A stretch of DNA of 56,395 bases from a virus (taxonomy: Duplodnaviria; Caudoviricetes), in IMG/VR virus record IMGVR_UViG_3300026037_000015, positions 1-56,395 of that record; one strand, given 5' to 3'. Made by a program: the position numbers and the translations under genes. Below the pieces are notes generated by a model, which saw only the letters and a list, made by a program, of their open reading frames with translations, was not told where the DNA came from and ran no database searches. Shown in pieces: positions 1 to 16,698 of this stretch (the stretch's first letter is position 1; each line of letters opens with the position of its first letter).

Positions 1-127
1 AGCGCCGTCCCCACAGCCCCTCCCTCACCGCCTGAGGGCAGCCACATCCTGGTCCGGCCCGGCCAGCACGTCTGCGCCCTCCGTGAGGGCTACGACAGCC
101 CTCATCAGGAGGGCGAGCCCGCCTGGA
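1..127. repeat. 127-bp direct repeat identical to 56269-56395 (circular assembly overlap)
   Basis: Sequence agcgccgtcc...gcccgcctgga is present at both ends, and an ORF reads through the junction. Confidence 0.95.
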
Positions 128-432
128 GGGAGTGGCGGACCTTCGCTGCCTCCTCCCACATCTACGCGACGGACGTCACGCCCTACACCCCTCATGCGTC
201 CCATGCCCGCAGGACCCTCGGGACCCTCATCCGGGGGACCCGCGTGAGGGTCTGCTGGACCCCTCACGGGACGGCAGATGAGACCCGCACCGCTGAGGGC
301 ATGGTCGTGGTCAACCCGTACGGGGCAGCCTCCGGCTCAGTGTGGGTTGGCGGGCACATCGTCGGATCCCTCATCTCCCCCGAGGACCAGATCACCGGCC
401 TCCACCTCCTCCCCCGGGAGGGCCAGTCATGA
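1..432 (+). CDS. 3' part of a membrane-anchored hypothetical protein that starts at 56164 and crosses the circular junction
   Basis: Frame +1 is open from 1 to TGA at 430-432 and continues the ORF MNPLVDMIIYLGVLLGAALIAAALIL from 56164; the stop overlaps the next ATG (ATGA). Confidence 0.7.
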   Translation, partial: SAVPTAPPSPPEGSHILVRPGQHVCALREGYDSPHQEGEPAWREWRTFAASSHIYATDVTPYTPHASHARRTLGTLIRGTRVRVCWTPHGTADETRTAEGMVVVNPYGAASGSVWVGGHIVGSLISPEDQITGLHLLPREGQS

Positions 433-638
433 GCAGCCGCTTCGTCGCCGCCGGGCTGACCACCTACGGGGTCGCCCTCGCCGTCTACTGCCTGCTCGCC
501 CAGAGGTGGGTCCCGGCCGCCGGGATGGTCCTCTGCGTCGTCGCCATCCTGCTCCCGGACGACCTGCGCTCCGCGAAGTGGATCATCACCTTGTGCGCTG
601 CCGTCCTTGTCGTCCTCTCCCTGATCGGAGGTAAGTGA
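429..638 (+). CDS. small multi-TM membrane protein (Spd-like candidate)
   Basis: MSSRFVAAGLTTYGVALAVYCLL...; about 3 hydrophobic segments; ATGA coupling. Confidence 0.7.
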   Translation: MSSRFVAAGLTTYGVALAVYCLLAQRWVPAAGMVLCVVAILLPDDLRSAKWIITLCAAVLVVLSLIGGK

Positions 639-640
639 TC

Positions 641-865
641 ATGGGTGACCGGCTCAAGGCTGGCAGCTACACCGTCCGGATCAAGCGCGGCCGGGTCACT
701 GAGGCAACCCTTACCGGGATCTACCTCGGGTCCTGGCACGAGGTCCGCGGCGTGCTCCTCTCCTGGGTCGAGGAGAACAACCGGACCCGCTGGCTCGCCG
801 ACTACCGGGCCGAGGTCCGCGACGGGCGGAAGGGGGTCGGCAGCGTTGGCGCCGCGGGGGAGTAG
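641..865 (+). CDS. hypothetical protein
   Basis: GGAGG RBS upstream; coding-like codon usage. Confidence 0.55.
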   Translation: MGDRLKAGSYTVRIKRGRVTEATLTGIYLGSWHEVRGVLLSWVEENNRTRWLADYRAEVRDGRKGVGSVGAAGE

Positions 866-1052
866 GCCAGCTCGAGGTCCTCGACCGGACCCGACCCCGG
901 CCGAGGCCCGGGCCAGCCGGCTCTGGGACAAGGCACGGGCCCGGGCCAGAGCAATGACCAGGGAGGTCTCACCAGCCGCTGGTGACGCCGTCTGGCAGGA
1001 CGTCGGCACCGCCATCGAGCGGGCCCTCCTCGCCTCGGAGGCTCGTCTCAAC

Positions 1053-1150
1053 GGCACCCGGTAGTCGGCACCCGGTAGTCGGGGGAGACCCTCCCGCCCG
1101 GACGCACCGCGCGCAGACGCGCGCAACGCACGCGCAAGGCGCGCGCGCGC
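1053..1150. repeat. tandem 14-bp repeat (CGGCACCCGGTAGT x2) followed by a run rich in alternating CG
   Basis: Seen directly at 1053-1080 and about 1102-1151. Confidence 0.6.
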
Positions 1151-1178
1151 GAGGATACAAGATCAAGGAGATCGGGGC

Positions 1179-1688
1179 ATGGGATCCATCGTTTTCGCCC
1201 TCGCAGCCGTCGTGTTCGCCGCCGTCATGCAGTGGCGCAACTGGAGCTGGAAGTACAACCTCGGCATCCGCCTGGCGTCCCTGGCGGTGCTCTATGCCGG
1301 GTCCGTCCTCAACACCTACCTCGGTGGCCCCCTGCGGACGGTCATCACCTGGCTCGCAGGGATGGCCGGCCAGCTCATCGGCGCGGCCATCGCCCTGATC
1401 GGGGAGGTCTTTGACGTCTCCGTGCCCAACGCTGGCTTGATCGGGGAGGCCGTCGGATCGGCAGCTCCCTGGATCATCGGCGCGGTCCTCTGCGTCATCT
1501 GGATCGCCGCGATCCTGCCCGACCGGATCGTCCCGGACAAGATCGACTGGCAGGCCATGTGGTGGGGCATCGCGATCCCGATGCTGGTCCTGACGGTCCC
1601 CGGACGGATGGGGGAGATCCTCTCCAGTGCCGTCATCGCAGCCTCCGGCTGGGGCGACAACATCATGAGCACCCTGCTGGGGGCCTGA
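1179..1688 (+). CDS. multi-TM membrane protein (Spd/transfer-associated candidate)
   Basis: AAGGAG RBS; 4-5 hydrophobic helices; upstream of the FtsK/TraB gene. Confidence 0.75.
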   Translation: MGSIVFALAAVVFAAVMQWRNWSWKYNLGIRLASLAVLYAGSVLNTYLGGPLRTVITWLAGMAGQLIGAAIALIGEVFDVSVPNAGLIGEAVGSAAPWIIGAVLCVIWIAAILPDRIVPDKIDWQAMWWGIAIPMLVLTVPGRMGEILSSAVIAASGWGDNIMSTLLGA

Positions 1689-1692
1689 CCCG

Positions 1693-2517
1693 ATGGACCC
1701 CATCACGATCTCCCTGGTCCTCGCCGTCCTCCTCACCTCCGGAGACACCGCCAGCGCCGGTCGAGGCCACGTCTACGCAGGGCACGCCGTCCGCGCCTAC
1801 CGGCGCGGCCGGAAGGCCGAGTCCCTCAAGCAGCGTGAGGCCCGCCGCAAGGACCGGGCCAAGCGGCTACGCAAGACCCGCATCGGCCGCTACCGGCTGT
1901 GGGTCGAGGCAGCCGCCCGGTCCTGGTTGGTGTCCCGCAGGGCAGGCCTCAAAGCCGTCCGTACGGAGTGGCCCTCACGGCACGCCACCTACGCCGCGCG
2001 CCGGGAGGCAGCCGCCCACAGGAGGGCCCGCATCCGGGCCCGAGTCCAGGCCCTCAACACCCCGCGGGCCGACCCCGAGCCACCCACACCGGTTGAGGGC
2101 CCTCAACCCACACCGGATGAGGGCCCTCAACCCACACCGGATGAGGGCAGCACCCCAGACCCCGGAGGGGCCGGCCATGGCCCGGCCGACCCCCCCGGCG
2201 CACCACAAGCACAGACACCCCTACCCCCCAAGGAGACCGGCATGGCACAGCCCACACCCAACACCGAGGCGCATTCTCTCGGCGCCTGGATCAAGCAGTG
2301 GGAATCCCTGCTCGCGGCAGCGAACGCACTCACTGAATCCGGCGCCACGCACCTCAAACTCCACGGGGCAGCAATCGCCCCCGCATCCGACGTCATCGAC
2401 CACATGGAATCCGCGCTCAACACATTCCGCACGAACTTCGCGGGGCTCATCGAGGCCGCAGACCTCGCCCCCGAAGGCACCGGCCACATGACGGTCGCTC
2501 AGGCCAGGACGGAGTAA
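1693..2517 (+). CDS. membrane-anchored hypothetical protein with Arg-rich and Pro-rich linker (transfer module)
   Basis: N-terminal hydrophobic segment, PQPTPDEG repeats; possible internal start at 2242 (AAGGAG RBS). Confidence 0.7.
   Translation: MDPITISLVLAVLLTSGDTASAGRGHVYAGHAVRAYRRGRKAESLKQREARRKDRAKRLRKTRIGRYRLWVEAAARSWLVSRRAGLKAVRTEWPSRHATYAARREAAAHRRARIRARVQALNTPRADPEPPTPVEGPQPTPDEGPQPTPDEGSTPDPGGAGHGPADPPGAPQAQTPLPPKETGMAQPTPNTEAHSLGAWIKQWESLLAAANALTESGATHLKLHGAAIAPASDVIDHMESALNTFRTNFAGLIEAADLAPEGTGHMTVAQARTE
2091..2148. repeat. 24-bp tandem repeat containing the palindrome TGAGGGCCCTCA
   Basis: GGTTGAGGGCCCTCAACC (2091-2108) is a perfect 18-bp palindrome; the unit recurs with a 24-bp period. 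Confidence 0.75.
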
Positions 2518-2521
2518 GGAC

Positions 2522-4624
2522 ATGGCGAGGGCCAAGACGTACCGGCTGCCTACCCAGCCGCCGCGCGGTGCTGGCGGCGGGCCAATCGCCTTGGCCCTCG
2601 CCACCCGCCGGGTCACCCGCAGGGCCCGAGGCAAGGACCAGCCCGTCGTCCCCGTGTGGCAGCCCGACGGCCGCGCGGTAATGGTCCCCATCTCCCAGCC
2701 GGCCAGGACCGAGGAGGAAGGCGACCAGCTCTACCGGCGCCGTCGTGTCGTCGTCGTCCTGCCCGCCGCGATCATCCTTGCCTGCCTGCGGGTCCTCCTC
2801 GACCTGGTCCCGCCGGGGGACACCCTGACCTACCTCTCCCTGGCCACCGGAGTCTCCGGAGCCATCATCTGGAGGCGTACCTCTCGCGCCGCGCTGACCG
2901 TCCTCGACTGGACCGTCGGCGACTGGTCCGGCCGCGCCGTCGGCCGCCTCGCGATCGGGGTCGCCCCGTCGCAGCCCGCACCGCAGGAGACGGCAGCCCA
3001 GCGGACCCGGAGGGTCCTCACCAGCATCAGGTGGCGCATATGCCTAAGACTCCGGGCCTCCCGCGCTGCGAGCTACGTAGCCCTCGGCTACTGCCTGACC
3101 TACGTCACCGGCCTCGCCGGGCCCTACACCATCGTCATCGCGGCTGCCGTCGCCCTCACCGCCCGCGCCTGGCGCTACCGGATCCGGCCGATGCCCCCCG
3201 AGCCCGAGCCAGCCGAGGAGACCCTCGAAGACATCTGGCACGGCGACCTGGCGCCCGCCATCGGCTGCGCCGGAGCCGTGATGCTCGCTGTCGAACCGCT
3301 CCGGACCGTCGACGGCTGGCGAGCCGACATCGAGCTGATCCGGGCCAAGCAGACCGTGTCGATGCTCAGGGCGGGCGCAGAGAAGATCGCCTCCGCCTAC
3401 GACGTCACCCCGTCCCAGGTCGGGATCGAGCAGCTCGGATCCGCGCGCCGTGCGCGCCTGACCATCGTCCAGAACTCGGTGCTGACCTCGGGCAAGGTCA
3501 CCACGGGGCTGGGGCTCGACCTGGAGACCGGGGTCGCCGATCTGTCCACACTTATCGACGGGTCGAGAGCCGGCTGGCAGTGGTACGACCCGGAATACGG
3601 GACGTACATGGGCTGGGTCTTTGGGTCGACCGGCTCAGGCAAGTCCAAGACCCTCGACGCGCTCCTGTCCTCGATCATGGCCTCCGGGATCGCCGTCCTC
3701 GACCTGGTCGACCTCAAGGGCGGGTCCTCCCTGCCCGAGTGGAAGGCCGTCGCTTACCGGTACGGCACCGACCTGCCGAGCGCGCTCGCCGGGATCGAAC
3801 GGGCGATCGCGGTCCACGAGGCCCGGTCCCGGTGGCTCGACGAGCACATGATGCGCCAGCGCACCCCAGCCCCCGACTGGCCGCTGTACCTGCTCGTGAT
3901 CGAAGAATTCGCCCACCTGCGGGAGATCAGGGGAGCGATCGCCCGGGCGGAGAGGATCGTCACCCAGGGCAGGGCAACCGCGGTCGCCCTGGTCGTCGCG
4001 ACCCAGGCCTCCGACCTCGCCGGAGCGTTCAGCGGATCCAACGTGTTCCGGACCCAGCTCCAGGCCGGGAACGTCCTCGCGCTGCGCTCCGACGCGGGGG
4101 CTGCCCGGACCGGCCTCGGAGGCATGGCCGGCCAGATCGACCTCTCCGTCATCCCCGCCCGGCAGGGCGGCACCGGGTACCTCATCACCCCCTCCAGCCA
4201 GCGTCCGATCCTCGGCCGCGTCGACCACGTCCGGGACACTCAGGCCGTCGTCGACCGGTGCATTGCTGCCGTCCCCGGCCCGCTCATCGACCTGGCCGTC
4301 GCCCGCATCGAGGCCTCCTGGGAGGAACAGGCCAAGCAACAGCAGGCCGCTGGCTCCCTCGCAGACCAGGCCCTTGCCGAGGCCTCCGTCCTCCTCGACC
4401 GGGCCAACACGAACAGCCCCAGGTCCCCGGTCCGGGACAAGGTCCTCGCCTGGCTACGGGAGCACCCCGGGCCCCAGTCGGTCCGGGACATGGTCACCGC
4501 GGGACTCGGCAGCGACAAGGGGATCCGAGAGGCCAGGGACTCCCTCTGCAAGGACGGACTCGTCCAGCTCACACCGTCGGCCGGCCAGGGCTCCTGCCAG
4601 GCCGTCACCCAGGAGGCATCGTGA
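2522..4624 (+). CDS. FtsK/SpoIIIE-family DNA translocase, TraB-like
   Basis: N-terminal TM segments; Walker A GSTGSGKS; DLKGG; Walker B LLVIEEF; QGRATAV...VATQ; C-terminal winged-helix-like segment. Confidence 0.85.
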   Translation: MARAKTYRLPTQPPRGAGGGPIALALATRRVTRRARGKDQPVVPVWQPDGRAVMVPISQPARTEEEGDQLYRRRRVVVVLPAAIILACLRVLLDLVPPGDTLTYLSLATGVSGAIIWRRTSRAALTVLDWTVGDWSGRAVGRLAIGVAPSQPAPQETAAQRTRRVLTSIRWRICLRLRASRAASYVALGYCLTYVTGLAGPYTIVIAAAVALTARAWRYRIRPMPPEPEPAEETLEDIWHGDLAPAIGCAGAVMLAVEPLRTVDGWRADIELIRAKQTVSMLRAGAEKIASAYDVTPSQVGIEQLGSARRARLTIVQNSVLTSGKVTTGLGLDLETGVADLSTLIDGSRAGWQWYDPEYGTYMGWVFGSTGSGKSKTLDALLSSIMASGIAVLDLVDLKGGSSLPEWKAVAYRYGTDLPSALAGIERAIAVHEARSRWLDEHMMRQRTPAPDWPLYLLVIEEFAHLREIRGAIARAERIVTQGRATAVALVVATQASDLAGAFSGSNVFRTQLQAGNVLALRSDAGAARTGLGGMAGQIDLSVIPARQGGTGYLITPSSQRPILGRVDHVRDTQAVVDRCIAAVPGPLIDLAVARIEASWEEQAKQQQAAGSLADQALAEASVLLDRANTNSPRSPVRDKVLAWLREHPGPQSVRDMVTAGLGSDKGIREARDSLCKDGLVQLTPSAGQGSCQAVTQEAS

Positions 4625-5724
4625 CCGACCAGACCCCGCCCTCGACGGGCCCTGCCCCCGTGCCGGCCAAGGCGACCCTCAACCCGAGGGTCACCATCGG
4701 CATGAGGATCGCCGCCGCGTGCATCGCTGCCGTCATCGGAGTCATCGGCGCGGTCGGCTCCTACGAAGGCCTCCGGGCAGGAGTTGCCCCGTACAGCACC
4801 CCATGGTTCGCGATGATGTTCCCGCTCCTCGTCGACCTCCTGATCGTCGTTTCCAGCCTGGAGTTCGTCGCGGCCACCCGAGCCCACAGCCCGGGCCGCC
4901 ACGGGTGGCGCATGATCGCCCACACCGCGATCGCAGGGACGATCGCCCTCAACGCGATCGCCGCACTGCGGGACTACGGCCCGGCTGGCGTCACCTGGCA
5001 CGTCATCGCCCCGACCGTCTGGGCCGTCCTCATCGAGCAGTACGCCCGGAAGTTCCAGGGGGAGTGGAAGGCCGAGCACACGCCGGACGTGATGATCCCC
5101 GCGCGGCTGTGGCTGCGTCACCCCGTGGACTCCGCCCGGCTGTGGCTGCGCGCCGCCGAGCTCGGGGGCGCACACTCGACGATCTCGGCTGACCTCGGTG
5201 TGCAGCGAGCAGCGATCGCCGTCCTGCGCGACTCCCTGCCGATCATCGGCTCGGCCCGGATCCGCAGGCTCCTCATCCGCCAGGTCCGCGCCGGGTCGCT
5301 GTCTCCCCGGGCCGTCCTCGACGCTTGCGGTGTGCTCGACCCCAGCGCCAGCAACGTCCCCCAGGACATCCGCCGCCGTGCCCTGGTCTCCATCCTGCGG
5401 ACCCAGGCCATTCCCGCAGCACCAGCCCCCCGGCCAGTGCTGCCCGCTACGCAGCCTCTCGCTCTTGCACCAGGCTCGGTGCCAGCACCAGCCCGGCCGA
5501 GCCCGTCCCGGCCAGCACCGGCCCGCCTCGAGGTCTCGACCCCGGACCGGGACAGCGTCATCACCTCGCTCCGGCGGGAGATGGGGGAGACCGACACCTG
5601 GAGACCCGACTACGCCCGGCTCATGGCCACCACGGGCAAGAGCCACTCCTGGTGTGAAAAGGCCGTATCCGAGGCCCGTCGTCTCGGTCCGATAGCGCGC
5701 CTCCGTGCCGCTGAATCCTCATAG
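4621..5724 (+). CDS. DUF2637-like membrane protein (Spd-type spread protein)
   Basis: Four TM helices with SYEGL, FPLLVD and IALN motifs typical of actinomycete plasmid/AICE DUF2637 proteins; Pro-rich linker; C-terminal HTH-like end; GTGA coupling to the TraB-like gene. Confidence 0.75.
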   Translation: MTDQTPPSTGPAPVPAKATLNPRVTIGMRIAAACIAAVIGVIGAVGSYEGLRAGVAPYSTPWFAMMFPLLVDLLIVVSSLEFVAATRAHSPGRHGWRMIAHTAIAGTIALNAIAALRDYGPAGVTWHVIAPTVWAVLIEQYARKFQGEWKAEHTPDVMIPARLWLRHPVDSARLWLRAAELGGAHSTISADLGVQRAAIAVLRDSLPIIGSARIRRLLIRQVRAGSLSPRAVLDACGVLDPSASNVPQDIRRRALVSILRTQAIPAAPAPRPVLPATQPLALAPGSVPAPARPSPSRPAPARLEVSTPDRDSVITSLRREMGETDTWRPDYARLMATTGKSHSWCEKAVSEARRLGPIARLRAAESS

Positions 5725-5737
5725 GAAGGCACCACCC

Positions 5738-6031
5738 ATGAATCCCACGTTCGCGCTCATCCTGCTGCTCACCGTCGCCGGACTCTGGCTCCTGGTCCGG
5801 CTCATCGAGACCGGCAACCGCCAGCTCCAGGCCCTGGTCAACCTCAAGGCCGACGAGGAGCCGGAGGAGCCGGAGGGCTGGACCTGGGAGCAGCGGTACG
5901 AGGCCCGCAGGCGCCGGTCGGCTCCGGGCCCGGCCCGGTCCTCGTCCTGGCCGGCAGGGCTGCTCGAGGTCGAGGACGTCAACCAGGGCGAGGCCGTCTC
6001 TGGTGCCGACAACACCAGCGCGGGGGAGTGA
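5738..6031 (+). CDS. small membrane-anchored hypothetical protein
   Basis: AGGAAGG RBS; N-terminal TM. Confidence 0.6.
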   Translation: MNPTFALILLLTVAGLWLLVRLIETGNRQLQALVNLKADEEPEEPEGWTWEQRYEARRRRSAPGPARSSSWPAGLLEVEDVNQGEAVSGADNTSAGE

Positions 6032-6297
6032 CCCCGATGAACATCTCCGAGGCGAAGGACGTCGCCCTGCTCCTGGAGTGGGCCGCCGGGCTGGCCGAGC
6101 CCCCGGTCTCCTGGACCGAGACCGCGGCCGCCGCCGGGCGCCTGGCGCTTCGGGTGCACCGGGCTCTGGCTGCTGGCCCGGACCAGCACGAGGTCTACCA
6201 CGGGGTCTCCCGGGCCACGGTCACCCACGGGACCTGCGCTGACCCGTGGTGCAAGCTCTGCTCCGGGCACCTCGCGGGGAAGAGGATGACCCCGTGA
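6028..6297 (+). CDS. hypothetical protein (C-terminal CxxxxCxxC)
   Basis: Coupled ORF, coding-like codon usage. Confidence 0.6.
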   Translation: MTPMNISEAKDVALLLEWAAGLAEPPVSWTETAAAAGRLALRVHRALAAGPDQHEVYHGVSRATVTHGTCADPWCKLCSGHLAGKRMTP

Positions 6298-6557
6298 TCG
6301 GCTGCGGTTGCGGGCCCCAGCCGCCCTACGTCCAGGTCACCAGGAGGCAGGGCCCGGTGACCTGGGTCGGGCTGGAGCCCGGGGGAGAGCTGGGGGAGCA
6401 GTGGGCCTGCCCCGAATGCGGTCGCCGGTACGTCGTGCGCCGCGCGCCGTGGGCCAGGTCCCCAGCGAGGAGCGGCACCGGCAGCTACCCGCTGCGGGTG
6501 TGGGCCCCGCCCGGCCGGTTCCCGCGATTGCGGGACATCTGGGGGTGGAAGCGGTGA
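6294..6557 (+). CDS. small zinc-ribbon hypothetical protein
   Basis: CGC and CPECG motifs; GTGA overlaps at both ends. Confidence 0.55.
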   Translation: MIGCGCGPQPPYVQVTRRQGPVTWVGLEPGGELGEQWACPECGRRYVVRRAPWARSPARSGTGSYPLRVWAPPGRFPRLRDIWGWKR

Positions 6558-6877
6558 GCTACCAGCGGGCCGTGCGCCACAACGTCACGTGCCCGCGGTG
6601 CGGCCGCCGCGGGTACGTGACGACGGGCCCCTGCGGCACGTGGATTTTCTGTGCTGCGCACGAGGGGATCCACGTGACCTCCCGGGCCCTCGTGAGGTCC
6701 TCCGTGCGTCTGATCATCGCGTGCACGAGCACGGTCAGCGCGTGCACGCACGAGGAGCACGTCGACCGGCGGGACTGGATCGCGACGGCCCGGGAGCTGC
6801 ACCTGGCGGCGCTGGTCGAGACCCGTGCCGCGTTCGGTCTGGGCCCTGATCTGACCCCTCTCGCCAGCGACCGATAA
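6554..6877 (+). CDS. Cys/His-rich hypothetical protein
   Basis: CPRCG motif; the TAA stop lies within the dif-like site. Confidence 0.55.
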   Translation: MSYQRAVRHNVTCPRCGRRGYVTTGPCGTWIFCAAHEGIHVTSRALVRSSVRLIIACTSTVSACTHEEHVDRRDWIATARELHLAALVETRAAFGLGPDLTPLASDR

Positions 6878-6894
6878 TGTGCATTATGTCAAGT
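6867..6894 (+). other. dif: XerCD dif-like recombination site (candidate attP or dimer-resolution site)
   Basis: GCGACCGATAA-TGTGCA-TTATGTCAAGT has 11-6-11 architecture with inner ATAA/TTAT inverted repeat; 19/28 identical to E. coli dif (XerD arm 9/11); AT-rich island in a GC-rich genome. Confidence 0.85.
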
Positions 6895-7169
6895 AACGGA
6901 GTTTTGACCGCTATGGACCGTCTCCCCCGGCCCCGCCGACCGCTCCCTCCAGGTGCCCTCCGCCGCCGTCCTCGGCCCCTGCTGCGCGCGGTCGTCTACA
7001 CGACGGCCGAGCAGCCCCCCCGGCTCTCGGTGAACCGCTACCCGCGACACGACCGGCCCGGCCGCGTGGTGATCGGCATCGCGCTCCGGGTCGGCCACTG
7101 CCGACTGCTGTCCCTCGTATGGCGTCGGCCGTGAGCCGTCCCCCGAACCGCGACCCAGGAGGCACCAGC

Positions 7170-7613
7170 ATGACCTTGCTCCCCGACGAAGCCCGCCGGG
7201 TCCTCGCCGCGATCGACCTGACGGAACGAACCGGCGCGCACCAGTTCGCGCTGGGCTACGGCCACACCCGGGTCGCAGGCAAGCCCATCGGCACCTGGAC
7301 CGCGTCGGCCGTCTACCGGGGAGGGACGATCAGCGCCAGCGCCTACTCCCCGCACGACGCTGCCGAGCGGCTCGCGATCCGGCTACTGACTGGCGCGAAG
7401 TGCGCCGATTGCTCCAGTCTGGTGGCGCTAAGTAGTGACGGCGCGGTGGCCTACCCAGATGCGGAGATGGCAGACGGCACTCTCTGGACCCACGAAGAGC
7501 AGCTCCGAGCAGGGTTCTGTCGCTGGTACCTGGCCAACGGCCGGACCTGGACCCGAGGCTGCGAGGAGGAGCACCCAGATGACGCACACCACTCCCCCAC
7601 TCCCCCGGGGTGA
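7170..7613 (+). CDS. hypothetical protein with CxxC
   Basis: AGGAGG RBS. Confidence 0.7.
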   Translation: MTLLPDEARRVLAAIDLTERTGAHQFALGYGHTRVAGKPIGTWTASAVYRGGTISASAYSPHDAAERLAIRLLTGAKCADCSSLVALSSDGAVAYPDAEMADGTLWTHEEQLRAGFCRWYLANGRTWTRGCEEEHPDDAHHSPTPPG

Positions 7614-7746
7614 CACCGACGCCGTCCGGATCCTCGACGACGTCCAGATCCTCCTGGCCGAGGCCCTCGGCCCGGTACTGCCGGCCGAGACCTTCAACGA
7701 CCTCGCGGACGACCTCACCGGTCTCGTTCTCGCCCACCGGACCTGA
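7579..7746 (+). CDS. small hypothetical protein
   Basis: GAGGAGGAG RBS; coding-like codon usage. Confidence 0.55.
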   Translation: MTHTTPPLPRGDTDAVRILDDVQILLAEALGPVLPAETFNDLADDLTGLVLAHRT

Positions 7747-7749
7747 CCG

Positions 7750-8037
7750 GTGAGCGGCCCCAGCACCGTGATCCTCCTGAGCCTCGCCCTGGTCGTCAGC
7801 GTCGCGATCCTCACCGAACGACGCCGCGGCCGGTGGGCTGCCGCCCAATGGCTCTACCTGCGCCTCGGGTGGCTCTACCCAGGCGGGTTCGTGGCCGGGT
7901 CGACCGGGGAGGGCAGCATCCCCCCGGCAGCCTGGCAGGCCCTCGCCGCCGCCTACGCGGTGCCCTGGGTCGCAGCCTGGGCGCGTCTCGCGTGGCTCAC
8001 CTCACAGGCACCACCGGATACGCGGCACCCCGTATAG
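7750..8037 (+). CDS. small membrane protein
   Basis: Hydrophobic, Trp-rich. Confidence 0.55.
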   Translation: MSGPSTVILLSLALVVSVAILTERRRGRWAAAQWLYLRLGWLYPGGFVAGSTGEGSIPPAAWQALAAAYAVPWVAAWARLAWLTSQAPPDTRHPV

Positions 8038-8077
8038 TCGGCACGACGACACCCCATCCCCTACCCAGGGAGACCCG

Positions 8078-8458
8078 ATGACCCAGCCCACCGAGGCCCG
8101 TACCCCGCAGGTCGAGCTACAGACCTGGCTCAACGAGAACATGATCAGGCACTCGGCCGAGTGCGAAACGGCGATCGGCCGAGACATGTCCCGGATCATC
8201 AACAGCGGAAACCTCGACGTCGACCGGCTCCGGTCCCTGACCGACCGCCTCGACGCCGTCCAGGGCGAGGCAGGGGCCTACGAGCTGGCCCGTGACCACG
8301 TGACCGAGGACCCCGGCGTAGCCCTCGCGGCGGTCCGGCAGCGACTCGTCATGACCGCGATGGGCGTGACCGACTCCTCCTGGGCCAGGTCACGGTGCCT
8401 GGGCTTCCAGGCAGGGGCCCGCCGCGTGATGGAGGTCATCGACTCCCTCTCCTCCTGA
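8078..8458 (+). CDS. hypothetical protein
   Basis: GGGAG RBS; preceded by CCCCGTATAGT, the -10 motif shared with other early promoters. Confidence 0.7.
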   Translation: MTQPTEARTPQVELQTWLNENMIRHSAECETAIGRDMSRIINSGNLDVDRLRSLTDRLDAVQGEAGAYELARDHVTEDPGVALAAVRQRLVMTAMGVTDSSWARSRCLGFQAGARRVMEVIDSLSS

Positions 8459-8550
8459 CCTGCTGCCTGCCCCCAGAACCATCGGGCCCCCGCGCCGATC
8501 CCCTCCGGCCGGGGGCCCGATGCCGTCCCCGCCCGGGGCGAGCATGAGCC

Positions 8551-9105
8551 ATGACCTCCATCACCCACCTCGGCTACCGCGAGGTCGCCCCAGGCGACCT
8601 GGCCGACTTCCCCGGGAACGCCACCATCCACGACGAGGAGGCCCTCGACGCCTCCGTCGGACGGTTCGGCCAGTTCCAGGCCCTGCTCGCCCGAGAGCTA
8701 CCCGACGGGACCCTCCAGCTCCTCGCCGGGCACGGCACCCGCGCTGCCCTGGTCCGTAACGAGGTGACCTCCACCAGGGTCGAGGTCATCCAGGTCGACG
8801 ACGAGACGGCCCTGGGCATCAACCTCGCAGCCAACGGCACCACCCGCCGCCGCGACTACGAGCCAGCGGCGCTCCTCGACCTCCTCGCCCAGGCCCGAGC
8901 TGCCGGAGGCCTCGGAGGCACCGGCTGGGACGACGCCGAACACGATCGGCTCCTGGCCCTGGTCGAGGCCCCCGCGCCTGCCCCGGAGCCGCAGCCCCCG
9001 GCCGAGTTCCCGTCCTACGACGACGAGACCATCGAGACGTCCTTCAAATGCCCGTCCTGCGGCTACCAGTGGTCGGGAAACCCAGGCTCCAGCACCGATG
9101 AGTAG
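8551..9105 (+). CDS. ParB/Sulfiredoxin-like protein with C-terminal zinc ribbon, first gene of the DNA modification operon
   Basis: PGNATIH...SVGRFGQ...LLAGHGT..A ParB-N motifs; C-terminal FKCPSCGYQW. Confidence 0.75.
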   Translation: MTSITHLGYREVAPGDLADFPGNATIHDEEALDASVGRFGQFQALLARELPDGTLQLLAGHGTRAALVRNEVTSTRVEVIQVDDETALGINLAANGTTRRRDYEPAALLDLLAQARAAGGLGGTGWDDAEHDRLLALVEAPAPAPEPQPPAEFPSYDDETIETSFKCPSCGYQWSGNPGSSTDE

Positions 9106-10324
9106 ACCTGCCTACCGGGTCCCGACCATGGTCGAGATCAGGGCCCTGCCCCCGAACGGCCTCCGGGTCATCTCCACGTTCGCGGGCGCCGGAGGATCCA
9201 GCACCGGCTACCGCATGGCCGGCTACCAGGTCATCTGGGCCAACGAGTTCGTCCCGGCTGCCGCAGCCACCTACCGGGCGAACGCCTCCCCCGGCACCAT
9301 CGTCGACACCACCGACATCCGCGAGGTCACCCCCGAGTCGATCCTGGCCGCTACCGGCCTGGCCGTCGGCGACCTGGACATCTTCGACGGCTCCCCGCCC
9401 TGCTCGGGGTTCTCCACCGTCGGGATCAGGGAGGCCGGCTGGGGAGTGACGAAGGCCTACTCGTCCACCCGGCAGCGCGTCGATGACCTGTTCTTCGAAT
9501 ACACCCGGCTCCTGCGCGGGCTCCAACCCCGAGTGTTCGTCGCCGAGAACGTCTCCGGCCTGGTCCGCGGGGTGGCCAAGGGCTACTTCAAACGGATCAT
9601 GGCCGAGATGAAGGCCTGCGGGTACCGCGTCGAGGCACGGCTCCTCGACGCCCAATGGCTGGGGGTGCCCCAGGCCCGGAAGCGGATCATCTTCATCGGT
9701 GTCCGCCGCGACCTTGGCCGGCTACCGGTTCACCCCGGTCCCCTGTCGCACCGGTATGCCGTCCGGGACGTCCTGCCCGCCCTTGAGCTCCAAGGCGGCG
9801 GACCGTGCCCGTTCGGTGAGAGCAGCTACCAGCGGACGGACCGGCCGTCCCCGACGATCGGGTCCTCGCTGACGTTCGGCAACGGCAGGTCTCCCTCTAG
9901 CGTGGTCGTCGAGACCCCGCCGACCTACGTCCATGACACCGGAGGCGAGTTCGGTCAAGGCGACGGCTCGGACCGGCCGTCACCGACGATCGTCGCGACA
10001 CCGGCATCCCTGAACCACTACCGGGTCGCAGCAGCCGACGGCGAGCCCGGACCGGTCTGGCGCGAGCACCTCCCCTACTGCCCGGAGACCGGTAAGGCCC
10101 TGATCCTGCGACCGACCGCGTCGATGAGGTACACCCCGCCGCCCGGGAGGATCATGCGTCGCCTCACGATCCCCGAGCTGCGACTCCTCAGTTCGTTCCC
10201 CGCCGACTTCGCCCTCACCGGCAGCTACGAGGAACGGTGGGAGCGCTGCGGGCGGGCCGTCCCCCCGCTGATGATGCGCGCGATCGCGTCGACCATCGCC
10301 CGGGACGTCCTGTGTGCGGGCTGA
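9098..10324 (+). CDS. DNA cytosine-C5 methyltransferase-family enzyme, probable carboxymethyltransferase
   Basis: Motif I FAGAGG, IV GSPPCSGFS, VI AENV, VIII PQARKR, IX RRLTIPEL; motif X is GRAVPP instead of GNAV. Confidence 0.9.
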   Translation: MSRPAYRVPTMVEIRALPPNGLRVISTFAGAGGSSTGYRMAGYQVIWANEFVPAAAATYRANASPGTIVDTTDIREVTPESILAATGLAVGDLDIFDGSPPCSGFSTVGIREAGWGVTKAYSSTRQRVDDLFFEYTRLLRGLQPRVFVAENVSGLVRGVAKGYFKRIMAEMKACGYRVEARLLDAQWLGVPQARKRIIFIGVRRDLGRLPVHPGPLSHRYAVRDVLPALELQGGGPCPFGESSYQRTDRPSPTIGSSLTFGNGRSPSSVVVETPPTYVHDTGGEFGQGDGSDRPSPTIVATPASLNHYRVAAADGEPGPVWREHLPYCPETGKALILRPTASMRYTPPPGRIMRRLTIPELRLLSSFPADFALTGSYEERWERCGRAVPPLMMRAIASTIARDVLCAG

Positions 10325-11754
10325 TCGGAGGAGCGCTGCCCCTGCCCTCCGTCATCCGGGGCCTCGACGCGATCGCCCACCGCGGGCCCGACGACCAGGG
10401 CGCGGCCGAGTCCGGGGCCTTCGCCCTCGGCCATACCCGCCTCGCCGTCCAGGACGTCACGTCCGCCAGCGCCCAGCCGTGGCCGGCCAGCGACGGCAGC
10501 CTGGTCACGTACAACGGGGAGGCCTGGAGACCGGACGCTCTCCGTGCGCTGCTCCCCGAGCGCACCTGGTCGACGACCGGGGACACCGAGGTCGTCGCCG
10601 AGCTGCTCGCCGCGCACGGCACCGAGGCGCTGCCCCTCCTCGACCGGGCGATGTTCGCCCTCGCCTGGGTCGACCGGGAGGGGCTCCTCCACCTCGCCCG
10701 CGATCGCTACGGCGAGGTCCCCCTCCACGTCGGCCGGCTACCTGGCTCACGCATCGCCTATGCCTCCGAGGTCGCTGCGCTCCTCCAGCTCGGGGCCCAC
10801 CCGGCGACCATCCAGTGGCTCCTCCCTGGACACGTCATGACCGTCCAGCAGGACGGCCGTACGGCGACCGTCTCCAGGTGGGCAGCCCCCGAGGTCCTGA
10901 CCCCGTCCCAGGACGGCCCGCGGGCCGCTGCTGCCGTCGTCCGGCACCACCTCATGGAGGGAGTCACCGACCGCCTCACCGGAGACGTCCCGATCGCTGT
11001 CCTCGTCTCCGGAGGCCTTGACTCTTCCCTGGTCCTCGGGATCATCCGCACGATGCGACCCGACCTCGAGGTCGGCGCCTACACGGCCGTCCACAACCCG
11101 AGGTCCCTCGACCTCGCCCACGCCAGGGCCGTCTGCGGGTCCTGGGGCATCCCCCTGCGTGAAGTCCCCGTACCGGCGCCGACGGCTGCTGACCTGGCTC
11201 GGACGGTCCGCGCCGTCGAACAGCCGCATAAGGCCCAGGTCGAGATCGGCTGGGCCTGTCTGCACCTCGCCCGGGCGATCCGGCGGGACGGGTACAAGGT
11301 GGTGCTCTCCGGTGAGGGCAGCGACGAGCTGTGGGCGTCCTACGGGAGCCCCCGGTCGATCATGGTCCATCACGGGATCAAGACGCAGGGCTGGCACCAG
11401 TACCGGGCCTCCACCTTCACCGGCCAGCACAGGAAGAACTTCGCCAGGACGAACAAGGTGTTCATGAGGCACGGGATCGAGGCCAGGCTCCCGTTCCTCG
11501 ACCCCGGCCTCGTCGGCTACGCCCTGACCCTCCCCGAGGTGACCGTCACCAGAGCTGCCGGAGGCCGTACCCACACGAAAGCGGTTCTCGCCGCAGCGGC
11601 CGCGGGCCTCGTCCCGGAGACCAGCGTGTGGCGGGCCAAGGTCGCCTTCCAGGTCGGGGCAGGCCTCGACCTGGCGGTCAAGCGTGCCGTCCCTGATCCG
11701 CGCAGGCTCTACGCGGCCGAGTTCCGGACTGCCTACGGAGGAGTCAAGCCATGA
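10312..11754 (+). CDS. asparagine synthetase B-like glutamine amidotransferase/ATP-dependent amide ligase
   Basis: GTG start then N-terminal nucleophile C-G-L; HRGPD, HTRL, YNGE, DTEV, ARDRYG, PP-loop SGGLDSS, LSGEGSDEL, EARLPFLD. Confidence 0.9.
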   Translation: MCGLIGGALPLPSVIRGLDAIAHRGPDDQGAAESGAFALGHTRLAVQDVTSASAQPWPASDGSLVTYNGEAWRPDALRALLPERTWSTTGDTEVVAELLAAHGTEALPLLDRAMFALAWVDREGLLHLARDRYGEVPLHVGRLPGSRIAYASEVAALLQLGAHPATIQWLLPGHVMTVQQDGRTATVSRWAAPEVLTPSQDGPRAAAAVVRHHLMEGVTDRLTGDVPIAVLVSGGLDSSLVLGIIRTMRPDLEVGAYTAVHNPRSLDLAHARAVCGSWGIPLREVPVPAPTAADLARTVRAVEQPHKAQVEIGWACLHLARAIRRDGYKVVLSGEGSDELWASYGSPRSIMVHHGIKTQGWHQYRASTFTGQHRKNFARTNKVFMRHGIEARLPFLDPGLVGYALTLPEVTVTRAAGGRTHTKAVLAAAAAGLVPETSVWRAKVAFQVGAGLDLAVKRAVPDPRRLYAAEFRTAYGGVKP

Positions 11755-12476
11755 CGGACATCGAGGACCGGGAGCAGCCCGGAGCGTGGACGTTCGCGCA
11801 GTTCGGGGCGCAGTTCGACAGCCACGTCATCGCCCACCTCCCGGTCTATGAGGACGTGCAGGCGATCGTTGCGGGCGTCTCCTCGTACACGCTGCCGGAC
11901 CGGGGAGTCATCGCCGACCTCGGGGCCAGCACCGGCCGGACGATCGCCCAGCTCGCGGAGCAGCACCCCGAACGACGCCTGGTCGCCCACCTCTACGACG
12001 CCGATCCGTCGATGCTCCAGGAGGCCGAGCGGCGCCTGGTCGACCACGGGAACGTGACCGGCTACCTCCATGCCGGAGACCTCACCGAGGGCGACACGTG
12101 GAGCCACCAGCGGGCCGATCTGACCCTCGCCCTGTGGCTCCTCCAGTTCATCCACCCCCGGCACCGCGTCGAGGTCCTCAAGCGGGCACGGGACCGGGCT
12201 GCCGACAACGGAGTGATCCTCCTCGGGGCGAAGGCCCGGCACCTGGACTCCAGGTGGCAGGAGATCGCAGATGGGGCCCTCGCCGACTACAAGGCCGCCG
12301 CGGGGGTGACCCCGCAGGAGATCGTCGCGAAGGCGCGCTCGCTGCGCGGCGTGCTGATCCCCGATACCGGGGAGTCGCTGGCCGGCCACCTGGTGACGGC
12401 CGGGTGGCACGCCCCGACGGTCATCCACCGCTGGCACGTCTGGACGCTGATCGGCGCATGGGCCTCCCCACGGTAG
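11751..12476 (+). CDS. CmoA-like carboxy-S-adenosylmethionine synthase / class I SAM enzyme
   Basis: WTF...FDSHV..HLP.Y, DLGASTG, LQF and YK..AG.T..EI..K..SL.GV match the CmoA family pattern (WTFD..VA.VF.DMI.RSVPGY, DLGCS.G, TLQF, FK..NGYS..EI.QKR..LENV). Confidence 0.8.
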   Translation: MTDIEDREQPGAWTFAQFGAQFDSHVIAHLPVYEDVQAIVAGVSSYTLPDRGVIADLGASTGRTIAQLAEQHPERRLVAHLYDADPSMLQEAERRLVDHGNVTGYLHAGDLTEGDTWSHQRADLTLALWLLQFIHPRHRVEVLKRARDRAADNGVILLGAKARHLDSRWQEIADGALADYKAAAGVTPQEIVAKARSLRGVLIPDTGESLAGHLVTAGWHAPTVIHRWHVWTLIGAWASPR

Positions 12477-12496
12477 GAGGCTCATGCCTGGGGGGC

Positions 12497-12724
12497 TCAC
12501 CGGGTGGCGAGTGGCTCCCGCCACCGGTAGCAGCCGGTGGTCTGGACGAGCCACCGGTGGAAGGTCACGACCCCGGAGCGGGCTGTTGCCAGCTCCTCCC
12601 GGGTGCCGCCGTAGGCGACGTCGAGGGCCAGCTCGGCAGCGAGGCGCGCTGCCCGGTAGTCCTCGACGAGCTGCTGATGTGCTGGCCAGCACCCCCGGTG
12701 TCGGGGGCTACACCCGGTTGGCAC
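12497..12724 (-). CDS. small hypothetical protein
   Basis: Downstream of and co-oriented with 12731-13051. Confidence 0.55.
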   Translation of the reverse strand: MPTGCSPRHRGCWPAHQQLVEDYRAARLAAELALDVAYGGTREELATARSGVVTFHRWLVQTTGCYRWREPLATR

Positions 12725-12730
12725 GGCAGA

Positions 12731-13051
12731 TCACCATCCCTTCATCTCGCGGTAGGTGTCGAGCGCCGTCGCGGCAGCGACGAATCCCGTGTGGGTGACG
12801 GCAGCCGTAGTGCGCTGGTCGTCGTTGTCCCAGCGCAGGACGAGGGCGATCACGCGACCGGAGCGGGCGCCGATGCGGATCCGGCCGAACCCGCTGTCGG
12901 GGCCGACCCCGCTGAGGACGACGTCGACGGATCCCCGGTAGGCCGGGCGGACCTCGGGGCGAAGGCCTGCCCGCTCGGCCCGCTGGATGAGGCTCCGGGC
13001 TGCGGAGGTCATGGGGGCGGGGCTGCTGCTGGGGGAGGTCGTCGTCGCCAT
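12731..13051 (-). CDS. hypothetical protein, probably leaderless
   Basis: ATG lies 6 nt after a TATAGT -10 box. Confidence 0.7.
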   Translation of the reverse strand: MATTTSPSSSPAPMTSAARSLIQRAERAGLRPEVRPAYRGSVDVVLSGVGPDSGFGRIRIGARSGRVIALVLRWDNDDQRTTAAVTHTGFVAAATALDTYREMKGW

Positions 13052-13086
13052 GGCTCCACTATACGGGCTAGCGCGTTATAGTCCAG
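13052..13086 (-). promoter_or_regulatory. sigma-70-type promoter with operator-like spacer, leaderless transcript
   Basis: Minus strand CTGGAC-TATAACGCGCTAGCCCG-TATAGT-GGAGCC-ATG. Confidence 0.7.
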
Positions 13087-13120
13087 TCCGTAGTGCAGCG
13101 AAGGGTAGTCCGGCATCCGC

Positions 13121-13149
13121 TGGACACTAGACGCACTACCCCGTATATT
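13121..13149 (+). promoter_or_regulatory. sigma-70-type promoter for the DUF932 operon
   Basis: TGGACA-17 nt (ends CCCCG)-TATATT. Confidence 0.7.
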
Positions 13150-13196
13150 CATCGGGGTAAGGCACCGCAGGGCACCACGACAACAGGAGGACCCCC

Positions 13197-14246
13197 GTGT
13201 CCAGAGAATCCGACCGCTGGCTCAACCGCATGACCCTCATCGGCAACACCGACAAGCGCGGCACCGCCTGGCACTACCGGGCCGTCCTCCAGGGCCCCGA
13301 GAGCAACCACTACGCCGGGCCCATCCCCATCGAGGACGTCCGCCGCCGCCTCATCGGCTGGCAGCTCCAGCAGGGAACCATCTCCTCCTGCGTCATCACC
13401 GAGGACGGCGCCGACGTCTACGAGGACCCCAACCGTCTCTCCGTCATCCGCCCGCGCGGCGCGTTCGGCCCCGACGACCAGGGCGAGATCCTCGGCACCT
13501 TCCGCCGCGGGTACCGCATCCACCAGTACGACGAGTGGCTCCTCGGAGGCCTCGCCCAGATCCTCGACCAGTCCGCTGGCGAGCTGGTCATCGAGTCGGC
13601 CGGACTCCTCCGGCGCGGCGCCGTCGCCTGGGTCCAGATCGCCATGCCCGAGACCATGAACGTCGAGGGCGTCGAGTTCCGCACCCACATCACTGCCGCC
13701 ACCTCGGCTGACGGCACCCTCGCCACCGGATTCGTCGCAGGCAACCAGGAGGTCGTCTGCGACAACACCCTCCACGCCGCCTGGGTCGAGCGCGACGCCC
13801 GCAGCATCAAGATCCGCCACACCTCCGGCTCCCTCACCCAGATCCACCGGGTGCGCGACGCACTGGAGCTGGTCTACGCCGAGGCCGACGCCTTCTCGGC
13901 CGAGATCCGGGAGCTGGTCGCGACCACCGTCACCGACCGCCAATGGGCAGCTTTCCTCGACGCGCACACCCCCGTGCCGTCCAAGCCGGGCGCCGGGCGC
14001 ACCGTCGCCGAGAAGCACCGCTCCGAACTCTCCGCGCTCTGGGCAACCGACGAGCGGGTCTCCCCGTGGACCGGCACCGCCTGGGGCGTCCTCCAGGCGG
14101 TCAACACCCACCGGCACCACCTCAGCCGGGTCTCCGGCGGCGACGCCAAGCGCGGTGAGCGCAACATGGCCAACGTCGTCAAGGGCATCACCGCCCGCGA
14201 GGACCTGGCCGCGATCCGGCAGCTCCAGGGCGTCCTCTCGGCCTGA
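13197..14246 (+). CDS. DUF932 / phage-plasmid TIGR03299-like protein
   Basis: AGGAGG RBS; AWH, ESAGLLRRG, TSADGT, VVCDNT and GTAWG..QAV motifs. Confidence 0.85.
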   Translation: MSRESDRWLNRMTLIGNTDKRGTAWHYRAVLQGPESNHYAGPIPIEDVRRRLIGWQLQQGTISSCVITEDGADVYEDPNRLSVIRPRGAFGPDDQGEILGTFRRGYRIHQYDEWLLGGLAQILDQSAGELVIESAGLLRRGAVAWVQIAMPETMNVEGVEFRTHITAATSADGTLATGFVAGNQEVVCDNTLHAAWVERDARSIKIRHTSGSLTQIHRVRDALELVYAEADAFSAEIRELVATTVTDRQWAAFLDAHTPVPSKPGAGRTVAEKHRSELSALWATDERVSPWTGTAWGVLQAVNTHRHHLSRVSGGDAKRGERNMANVVKGITAREDLAAIRQLQGVLSA

Positions 14247-14257
14247 GCCGCCCACCT

Positions 14258-14287
14258 GCCCCGCCCCCCGTGGCCCGGGGGCGGGGC
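14258..14287 (+). terminator. GC-rich hairpin after the DUF932 gene
   Basis: GCCCCGCCCCC...GGGGGCGGGGC inverted repeat. Confidence 0.5.
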
Positions 14288-14322
14288 TCCCCCCGCAGCA
14301 ACGACCCCCCAGGAGCCCCCCC

Positions 14323-14568
14323 ATGGGTTTGCACGTCGACTGGCTGGACGCCCCAGCCGTCTCGCTTGAGCTGCTCCGCACCGGAGACCAGTTCGGCGAG
14401 GACACCGTGACCAAGCAGATCGGCCTCGTCCTGCACTACGACGAGGCCGTCGTCATCGAGGGCAACCGCAAGGAGCTGCTCAAGCTCCTCGACCGCGCTC
14501 GCTGCGCCGTCGCCGACCTCGACCTCACCATCCCCCGCACCACTCCCCAGGCAGGAGCACCGACATGA
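14323..14568 (+). CDS. hypothetical protein
   Basis: AGGAG RBS. Confidence 0.65.
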   Translation: MGLHVDWLDAPAVSLELLRTGDQFGEDTVTKQIGLVLHYDEAVVIEGNRKELLKLLDRARCAVADLDLTIPRTTPQAGAPT

Positions 14569-15044: not shown

Positions 15045-15056
15045 CCTGCCCCCACC

Positions 15057-15121
15057 GTATACGGGGTACCCCGCGCAGGGTCCAGCTGGACCATATACGG
15101 GGTACCCCGTATAGTGGAGCC
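15057..15121 (+). promoter_or_regulatory. promoter with two operator-like palindromes, leaderless transcript
   Basis: TGGACC(15087)-17 nt-TATAGT(15110)-6 nt-ATG(15122); perfect palindrome TATACGGGGTACCCCGTATA at 15094-15113; second copy at 15058-15073. Confidence 0.75.
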
Positions 15122-15325: not shown

Positions 15326-15374
15326 CCCCGCAGCACCGACGCCCTCCCAGCCTCCACCCGACAGGAGACCCACC

Positions 15375-15608: not shown

Positions 15609-15625
15609 CCGCCCCCTAGACACGT

Positions 15626-15902: not shown

Positions 15903-15919
15903 CCGGCGCCCGGTGTCCG

Positions 15920-16655: not shown

Positions 16656-16698
16656 CCGGCCCACCTCGGCCTCACCCGCAGACAGGAGACCCCCCACG

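Follow-up and report, generated by a model that had tools for sequence, protein, structure and literature searches.

A TraB-like ATPase gene coupled to a DUF2637 gene in an uncultured tailed-phage genome: a candidate module for virion-independent DNA transfer

The window analysed here is the whole IMG/VR virus record IMGVR_UViG_3300026037_000015, a stretch of 56,395 bp of tailed-phage DNA (Duplodnaviria; Caudoviricetes). It carries a run of co-oriented genes built around a membrane-anchored ATPase that resembles TraB, the DNA-transfer protein of actinomycete plasmids, followed directly by the gene for a membrane protein with the domain DUF2637. An earlier note, made from the DNA letters alone, had interpreted this run as a TraB/Spd-type conjugation module inside a complete virion-encoding phage genome. 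Positions 1–127 are identical to 56269–56395 and IMG/VR classes the record under direct terminal repeats; given this end identity, the genome is either circularly permuted or a circle of 56,268 bp. All genes of the module are on the plus strand and run from 55901 across the terminal junction to 6031, within the early operon and between the replication genes and the DNA-modification genes of the same strand. The features of the module are the following.

55901–56167, plus strand: excisionase-family / HTH_17 (helix-turn-helix) DNA-binding protein of 88 amino acids (aa), first gene of the run
56164–56395 then 1–432, plus strand: open reading frame (ORF) of 178 aa with one N-terminal hydrophobic helix, crossing the junction
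429–638, plus strand: 69-aa protein with three hydrophobic segments
635–865, plus strand: 76-aa soluble protein
1179–1688, plus strand: 169-aa membrane protein with at least three hydrophobic segments
1693–2517, plus strand: basic 274-aa protein rich in proline, whose gene immediately precedes that of the ATPase
1970–2150: candidate protein-binding repeat cluster (putative clt), 370–550 bp upstream of the ATPase gene
2522–4624, plus strand: TraB-like ATPase, 700 aa
4621–5724, plus strand: DUF2637 membrane protein, 367 aa, GTG start
5738–6031, plus strand: 97-aa protein with one N-terminal hydrophobic helix

The genes are thus present as the earlier note had described them: a co-oriented run with small membrane proteins, a membrane-anchored ATPase with a winged-helix-like C-terminus and a coupled DUF2637 gene. 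Start and stop codons overlap by four bases at 56164/56167, 429/432, 635/638, 4621/4624 and 6028/6031, and a 313-bp gap separates the 76-aa gene from the 169-aa gene. Four of the products are small membrane proteins (178, 69, 169 and 97 aa), of which the 97-aa protein may be the last of the module. The 69-, 76-, 169- and 274-aa proteins matched no Pfam, PHROG or NCBIfam family, and residues 36–178 of the 178-aa protein matched nothing in Pfam. For the 88-aa protein, TIGR01764 (E 1.4e-8, 34.9 bits, cut-off 28.8) and PF12728 (E 2.5e-8) confirm the excisionase-family HTH that had been called xis-like, but the scanned ORFs hold no integrase that could be its partner; it is for this reason more likely a small regulator. 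Promoter and terminator scans over 1–8600 gave nothing exceeding shuffled sequence.

The start of the ATPase gene at 2522, which gives the long form of the protein, is backed by residues 1–53, which are conserved in the relative P0002. An AlphaFold2 model built on an alignment of 54 rows reached a mean predicted local distance difference test score (pLDDT) of 83.3, with values mostly of 90–98 in the motor blocks (residues ~235–575). In this model N-terminal helices (79–218) are followed by a pre-motor domain, the motor, a long helix (587–629) and a C-terminal helix-helix-helix-strand-strand unit that is winged-helix-like (636–694, pLDDT 93–97). The Walker A motif GSTGSGKS occupies residues 368–375 and the Walker B region ends at E462; G373, K374 and E462 are invariant over the 54 sequences of alignment A3. 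Foldseek returned the FtsK motor 6t8o as the best match (E 5.7e-14; 6t8o, 2iut and 2ius span E 5.7e-14 to 3.7e-13 with target-normalised TM-scores of 0.58–0.66), then the coupling protein TcpA of pCW3 and then EccC/EssC. Additionally, the family profile A1 matches FtsK at E 1.1e-18. As modelled, the protein has the translocase fold of the FtsK/HerA superfamily. Pfam gave sub-threshold matches only (AAA_22 with 18.4 bits, HerA_C with 15.1 bits) and no match to the FtsK gamma or alpha domain.

For the placement of the ATPase between TraB and FtsK we used reference proteins from RefSeq plasmids, namely TraB of pWTY27, pSSPS4.7a, pCQ3 and S. longwoodensis and Tra of S. albidoflavus p7. In hhalign, the profile of 54 family members (A3) aligned with a profile of three plasmid Tra proteins, two of them named TraB by RefSeq (A4), with a probability of 99.9% and E 3.5e-36 over 562 columns, which extend from the membrane region through the motor to the C-terminal domain. 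Against pWTY27 TraB alone the same profile gave E 6.5e-25 over 382 columns. Against an FtsK with alpha, beta and gamma domains (pVMKU) it gave E 5e-13 over 152 columns, all in the motor core, and against pZL12.71c E 1e-6 over 252 columns. The identity to plasmid TraB in the hhalign alignments is ~18–21%. A maximum-likelihood tree (54 rows, 632 columns, LG+G4, Shimodaira–Hasegawa-like approximate likelihood ratio support) splits FtsK and the FtsK-like protein of mycobacteriophage MiaZeal from all Tra-type rows with a support of 100. The window ATPase lies within a clade of 38 rows (support 99) that also holds homologues of a Streptomyces linear plasmid, of Micromonospora pVMKU and of two phage contigs, G001 and G002. 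These comparisons support the view that the ATPase is remotely related, across its full architecture, to plasmid TraB rather than to chromosomal FtsK. The NCBIfam model NF041214 (plasmid_TraB), an equivalog with a cut-off of 800 bits, scores 952 bits with pWTY27 TraB, 850 bits with pCQ3 TraB and 47.8 bits with P0002, for which it is the best NCBIfam model (E 7.5e-13).

The protein encoded directly downstream of the ATPase matches PF10935 (DUF2637) at E 8.6e-11 with 42.4 bits (cut-off 22.8) over residues 30–179. DUF2637 is the family that the spd/SpdB2-type genes of Streptomyces plasmids carry in their annotation. DUF2637 genes adjoin the Tra/TraB genes in pWTY27, in S. albidoflavus p7 and in the S. 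longwoodensis element; the hhalign comparison of the window protein with the DUF2637 protein of pWTY27 is weak (E 4.9e-4, probability 32%). A word-seeded search returned four relatives besides the protein itself. One of them, P0188, is 51% identical and comes from a 4,648-bp contig; P0002 also comes from a 4,648-bp contig, and the pair of ATPase and DUF2637 protein is probably conserved in this relative. Another one, 43% identical, is found in Kineosporia mesophila. A tblastn search with the DUF2637 protein gave no match in 50,697 GenBank phage records or in the plasmid collection. From the gene set that the earlier note had regarded as the hallmark of actinomycete conjugation, the TraB-like ATPase and the DUF2637 protein could be recovered, but the other presumed Spd proteins have no relatives detectable by BLASTP in the plasmid transfer regions compared. 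The NCBIfam model for TraA matched none of the module proteins. The 274-aa and the 169-aa protein were considered as TraA-like candidates and rejected, as neither gave a BLASTP match to TraA or to transfer-region ORFs.

Where else does the ATPase occur? The only close relative from a word-seeded search is P0002, with 57% identity at 99% coverage; a further 27 are distant and mostly PF01580 proteins of ~600 aa (P0004 and P0008 are among the PF01580 carriers). With HMMER against 1.84 billion representatives, the number of matching proteins was 600 at a limit of E <= 1e-3; 237 of these also passed E <= 1e-10 and 20 passed E <= 1e-30. Family members are mostly 600–770 aa long. Ten clusters were checked among the best 150 listed; they carry either no name or the label "hypothetical protein", and all but one derive from metagenome assemblies only. 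A tblastn search of 72,556 plasmid records found relatives in 37, and every one of these 37 belongs to a genus of mycelial actinomycetes. In the best of these matches the homologue stands in a long operon with a DUF2637 gene upstream, and ~9 kb past it the other strand carries a gene for a GntR-family regulator. In the 50,697 phage records neither the window ATPase nor its G001 homologue found a tblastn match, which shows that this is not the common FtsK-like gene of phages, and blastn with positions 1–6000 gave no match there either. pWTY27 TraB matched 47 of these records, none of them an actinophage and all in the motor core only. Searches of viral contigs with the single ATPase, and likewise with the G001 and G002 queries, returned self-matches only, and the genome-contig scans (A2, P0044) and metagenome scans (A2, P0181) found no relative.

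The family profile matched three of four further records searched: the IMG/VR contigs G001 (75.8 kb, E 2.7e-142) and G002 (67.7 kb, E 1.1e-74) and, weakly, pZL12, whose protein pZL12.71c gave E 1.6e-7; a 6.8-kb fragment held no match. G001 and G002 have 171 ORFs of 70 aa or longer, and 60 of these, picked by size and position, were surveyed; both contigs showed terminase, portal, head, tail and tape-measure genes, and G002 additionally an endolysin and a serine integrase. The sole lysis-type match of G001 among the surveyed ORFs falls inside the tape-measure protein. The G002 terminase is 47% identical to that of the window. Since these full-virion contigs carry members, the ATPase family is a recurrent phage gene, and we have evidence that the divergent TraB-like clade spans ordinary actinomycete plasmids and at least three unrelated uncultured phage genomes. 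The pair of ATPase and DUF2637 gene was also looked for in G001 and G002 and rejected, as the tested neighbours of the ATPase are not DUF2637-like. The ATPase-family gene of G002 belongs to a block of genes of no known function (5424–19000) and is encoded on the opposite strand; an HTH gene follows just downstream on that strand, and NUDIX and polynucleotide-kinase-like genes are found further upstream in the block. The block lies between the lysis genes and the serine integrase, a position typical of prophage-expressed genes.

Just upstream of the ATPase gene, the interval 1970–2150 holds 6 of the 13 genome copies of the 8-mer GGCCCTCA, both strands counted. This is the strongest local 8-mer cluster in the genome. 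It lies within the 274-aa gene and contains a tandem repeat of 24 bp in 2.8 copies (2082–2148) with the palindrome TGAGGGCCCTCA. The GGCCCTCA cluster is a possible recognition site of the ATPase.

The integrity of the assembly was assessed with Logan contigs. Run X1 may be the source sample, and it therefore counts as a second assembler and not as a second sample. In X1 a 27,715-bp contig covers 1–2123 and continues past position 1, and a 14,179-bp contig covers 2119–12000. Their depths are 42 and 40.9, hence equal on either side of the only break, which lies at 2095–2148 and coincides with the 24-bp tandem repeat; the ORF 1693–2517 reads through. The break is repeat-induced and no sign of a chimera. 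Run X2, from another sample and study, contains pieces without differing letters at 1242–1392, 3021–3286, 8147–8297, 8860–9059 and 10916–11066, which fall inside the module and on both sides of it. Runs X2 and X3 hold small shares only, and a 3.5-kb contig of X3 that touches the window in bits of 21–24 nt was treated as noise. The GC content is 0.70–0.72 over the module borders, and the GC content at third codon positions (GC3) of the module, 0.86–0.93, is the same as in the rest of the genome. No flanking direct repeats were found around the module. With contigs that span both borders at equal depth, the possibility of a chimera that the earlier note had raised is not supported, and we consider chimerism unlikely.

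The genome around the module was scanned with PHROG (55 ORFs) and with Pfam (59 ORFs plus 20 further, 79 in total). Its GC content is 0.66–0.73 throughout, nearly all genes showing coding-type GC3 are on the plus strand, no tRNA genes were found in it, and CheckV estimates the completeness of the record at 78%. The siphovirus-type gene set is complete by PHROG and Pfam. The main features outside the module are the following.

9098–12476, plus strand: DNA-modification genes, in a cluster that extends over 9098–14246
20458–22266: large terminase (TerL), PHROG 2.7e-84
25486–28137: portal, PHROG 6.2e-109
30389–32053: major head protein, PHROG 1.5e-61
36667–38904: tape measure, PHROG 3.9e-26
44128–45318: endolysin, PHROG 1.8e-17
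47401–47820, minus strand, and 47951–48295, plus strand: CI/Cro-like divergent HTH pair
50703–51431 and 51836–52279: two WhiB-like genes in the early region
52494–53330, plus strand: replication initiator Rep (Pfam)
53327–54685, plus strand: DnaB helicase (Pfam)

The five virion and lysis genes of this list are uninterrupted ORFs with PHROG matches, so that the head, tail and lysis genes look intact, as the earlier note had it. Further virion genes encode a head-tail adaptor, the major tail protein and Dit-like and Gp37-like minor tail proteins, and for recombination there is a gene for a single-strand annealing protein. A temperate switch is suggested by the CI/Cro-like pair, and the phage may be an episomal prophage or a virulent derivative. 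Among the 79 ORFs covered by the Pfam scan there is no integrase, ParA or GntR/Kor-type regulator, and a "ParB-like" gene has PHROG matches only, without a Pfam partition domain. An actinomycete integrative and conjugative element (AICE) would combine an integrase and excisionase, a replication gene, Tra and Spd genes and Kor-type (GntR/NUDIX-associated) regulation; the window does not fit this class, as these ORFs include neither integrase nor GntR regulator and the excisionase-family HTH stands alone. Of the features of a pZL12-type plasmid-phage we see virion genes, Rep, DnaB, an iteron-like repeat and the TraB-like gene, while ParA is absent. The iteron-like repeat, an origin candidate, is a tandem array of 15 bp in 3.5 copies (GGTCGGTCAGCCGAC) at 52862–52913 within the Rep gene. 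The cluster at 9098–14246 encodes, by Pfam, a C5 cytosine methylase, an asparagine-synthase-like amidotransferase, an S-adenosylmethionine methyltransferase and a DUF932 protein, and it may serve the synthesis of a hypermodified base or anti-restriction. A 75-nt intergenic element is present twice (15603–15677 and 15897–15971, 83% identity), each copy ending at a gene start, and GGGGTACCCCGTATA-type repeats lie nearby at about 15058–15100; the small-gene array at 15–17 kb may have its promoters or operators in these elements and repeats.

How does the window compare with known systems? The TraB proteins of Streptomyces plasmids (pWTY27 TraA/TraB, pSVH1 TraB) measure 672–676 aa compared to 700 aa here. 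They share with the window ATPase the N-terminal membrane helices, the FtsK-fold motor and the C-terminal winged-helix-like domain, and the DUF2637 gene stands in the same operon in both. Unlike these plasmids, the window has a virion-encoding genome and a clt element that is a candidate only, and no TraA gene or GntR repressor was found in it. According to PMC3583192, pWTY27 TraB was required for transfer by experiment, has two N-terminal membrane helices and binds clt repeats. On pWTY27 an annotated gene for a phage major capsid protein (9648–11108) lies next to the tra genes; its authors remark on it in the same text, and we see in it further evidence of plasmid-phage traffic in Streptomyces.

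The idea of a phage with a conjugation-type second route is already published for pZL12 and pFP4, so that the hybrid proposed in the earlier note is not new as a concept. Streptomyces plasmid-phages are described in PMC4170104 (citing Chen 2012, pFP4) as propagating and conjugating as episomes and also forming infective particles, and PMC3583192 says the same of pZL12 and pFP4. Like the window, pZL12 / phage ZL12 (GQ919031; Zhong 2010) is an actinomycete tailed-phage genome with an FtsK-like tra locus: GQ919031 carries the FtsK/SpoIIIE-like ORF 71c alongside ParAB, integrase and phage genes. It differs in its size of 90.4 kb compared to 56.3 kb and in its ParA, ParB and integrase/recombinase, none of which was found here; a BLASTP comparison of its ATPase with ours is not significant. 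SpdB2 homologues were also noted on the actinophages phiC31 and VWB, where the authors proposed that they might aid the spread of phage DNA (Thoma 2015, PMC4447253). The window protein shares with these SpdB2 proteins the Pfam DUF2637 membrane domain and is coupled to a TraB-like ATPase, which the passage on these homologues does not mention for phiC31 or VWB. The FtsK/SpoIIIE-like proteins of cultured phages (MiaZeal gp206, Bacillus SPO1-like phages, Streptomyces phages Jaresh and Geonosis) likewise are phage-encoded P-loop motors of the FtsK fold; with 442 aa, MiaZeal gp206 is the shorter protein, and in the tree it falls with FtsK and not, as the window ATPase does, with the Tra-type rows. 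A full-text literature search gave no TraB-plus-DUF2637 pair in a phage beyond the pZL12, pFP4 and SpdB2 papers, whose details on plasmid-phages, accessible in part, could bear on the degree of similarity between the loci.

We hold with moderate confidence that the module belongs to the genome of a tailed actinophage by inheritance and as an integral component, that it is of the same stock as the actinomycete TraB/Spd apparatus for the transfer of double-stranded DNA (dsDNA), and that it would move phage DNA without virions. The fold, the membrane anchor, the C-terminal domain of DNA-binding type and the kinship to TraB all argue for translocation of dsDNA over a membrane or septum, and a virion-independent DNA transfer by the module is plausible. 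We infer that the ATPase would insert into the membrane via its N-terminal helices and form a ring as FtsK and TraB do. Its C-terminal winged helix would bind phage dsDNA, possibly at the GGCCCTCA cluster just upstream of its own gene, and the motor would then pump unprocessed phage DNA across the membrane or a septal cross-wall, with the DUF2637 protein and the small membrane proteins building the membrane part of the channel. As outcome, the phage genome could move into neighbouring hyphal compartments during infection without the need for virions. Alternatively, it could be transferred between hyphae from an episome-carrying cell, as reported for pZL12 and pFP4. Because the module sits in the early operon and no Kor, ParA or integrase was found, spread at the time of infection is no less favoured than conjugation by a stable lysogen.

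Several results weigh against this interpretation. When the A4 profile is aligned with the window ATPase alone, the alignment shrinks to 244 columns with E 1.6e-9. The FtsK_SpoIIIE family of Pfam (PF01580, gathering threshold 24 bits) is unmatched at E <= 0.01, so that the FtsK nature of the ATPase, as claimed in the earlier note, rests on fold and profile comparison and could not be recovered with this Pfam family. The NF041214 model finds no match in the ATPase at E <= 0.1; as the protein stays below the equivalog cut-off, it is TraB-like by architecture and remote homology and stands outside the curated TraB family. The tree points in the same direction: the expected grouping is seen in that the ATPase goes with the Tra-type rows and away from FtsK, but it forms a deep clade of its own, whose relation to the curated TraB clade has a support of 82 and is drawn open, and the curated TraB clade, the PF01580 clade, pZL12.71c and the window clade stand side by side in no fixed order. 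Among the partner genes, 13 accessory and flanking proteins, the DUF2637 protein included, found no BLASTP match at E <= 0.01 when compared with the ORFs of 13 loci translated in six frames (the plasmid transfer regions plus pZL12, G001 and G002), and the tested neighbours in G001 and G002 show that the ATPase–DUF2637 pairing is not universal in phages. The core 10-mer of the putative clt, with up to one mismatch, is not enriched genome-wide (13 found compared to 10.75 expected), and a coding tandem repeat accounts for part of the cluster. The scanned ORFs offer no GntR/Kor repressor, ParA or integrase that would back an episomal donor state, and a mycelial host is hinted at only by the taxa of the relatives. 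Finally, FtsK-like genes are common in Streptomyces phages and a replication role has been suggested for them in PMC11536984 and PMC13587820.

A rival view is that the ATPase serves phage DNA metabolism within one cell, either by resolving and segregating replicated or concatemeric genomes or by partitioning an extrachromosomal prophage at septation. The membrane proteins would then merely anchor the ATPase at the septum, in parallel to FtsK/SpoIIIE acting on chromosomes. The location of the module between Rep/DnaB and the DNA-modification genes on the same strand fits this, FtsK-like genes are widespread in phages (an FtsK query at E <= 1e-8 matches 371 of the 50,697 records), and a segregation device would be useful to a phage for which no ParA or integrase was found. 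We nevertheless regard it as rather unlikely, since the ATPase is closer to TraB than to FtsK with the membrane and C-terminal domains included, is separated with full support in the tree from FtsK and its mycobacteriophage relative, matches no FtsK gamma or alpha domain, has no tblastn relative in the phage records and is coupled to DUF2637, a family of plasmid spread and transfer operons. Similarly improbable in our estimate is a lytic-cycle pump that would be expressed early together with the replication genes and would push replicating genomes through septal cross-walls, perhaps into touching hyphae, without being conjugation. If true, one adsorption would turn a stretch of mycelium into virus factories before lysis, this form of virion-independent spread would be specific to multicellular bacteria, and the deep TraB-like clade would be a phage-adapted form.

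Distinctly less probable still is a device for exclusion or defence, in which the membrane translocase and its partners expel or block competing phage or plasmid DNA or manipulate the envelope of the host. PADLOC mad8 does match the ATPase in its P-loop part (E 1.7e-8), the G002 member occupies a usual prophage-accessory site on the opposite strand, and most of the module proteins are small membrane proteins of no known family; the mad8 match is, however, limited to residues 366–497, the 16 module and flanking proteins gave no further defence model, the full-length similarity is to a transfer protein, and the window module is co-oriented with the early lytic genes and not with the repressor. 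That the module is foreign to the phage, be it through an assembly chimera or as a recently captured and possibly inert fragment of an AICE or plasmid, is the least likely of the rival explanations and in our judgement very improbable. The record is a metagenome assembly with incomplete CheckV status, among named relatives, plasmid genes come closest to the ATPase, the accessory genes lack relatives in the compared loci and the Logan assembly breaks inside the module. Set against this are the X1 contigs that span the borders at matching depths with a break explained by the tandem repeat, the X2 pieces inside and beside the module, the uniform GC and GC3 across the borders, the lack of flanking direct repeats or a detected integrase and the two unrelated phage contigs that carry the same ATPase family.

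In summary, the preferred interpretation is that of an inherited phage module related to the TraB/Spd transfer apparatus. To what is known from pZL12, the window adds a small example (56 kb) without the plasmid-maintenance and integration genes annotated there, as well as a distinct and very divergent TraB-like clade that is found on both plasmids and phage genomes. If the module is functional, it would provide the phage with a second mobility route that needs neither receptor nor capsid. Host range, plaque formation and defence in mycelial actinomycetes would then be seen in a different light, and the line between phages and conjugative elements would be blurred.

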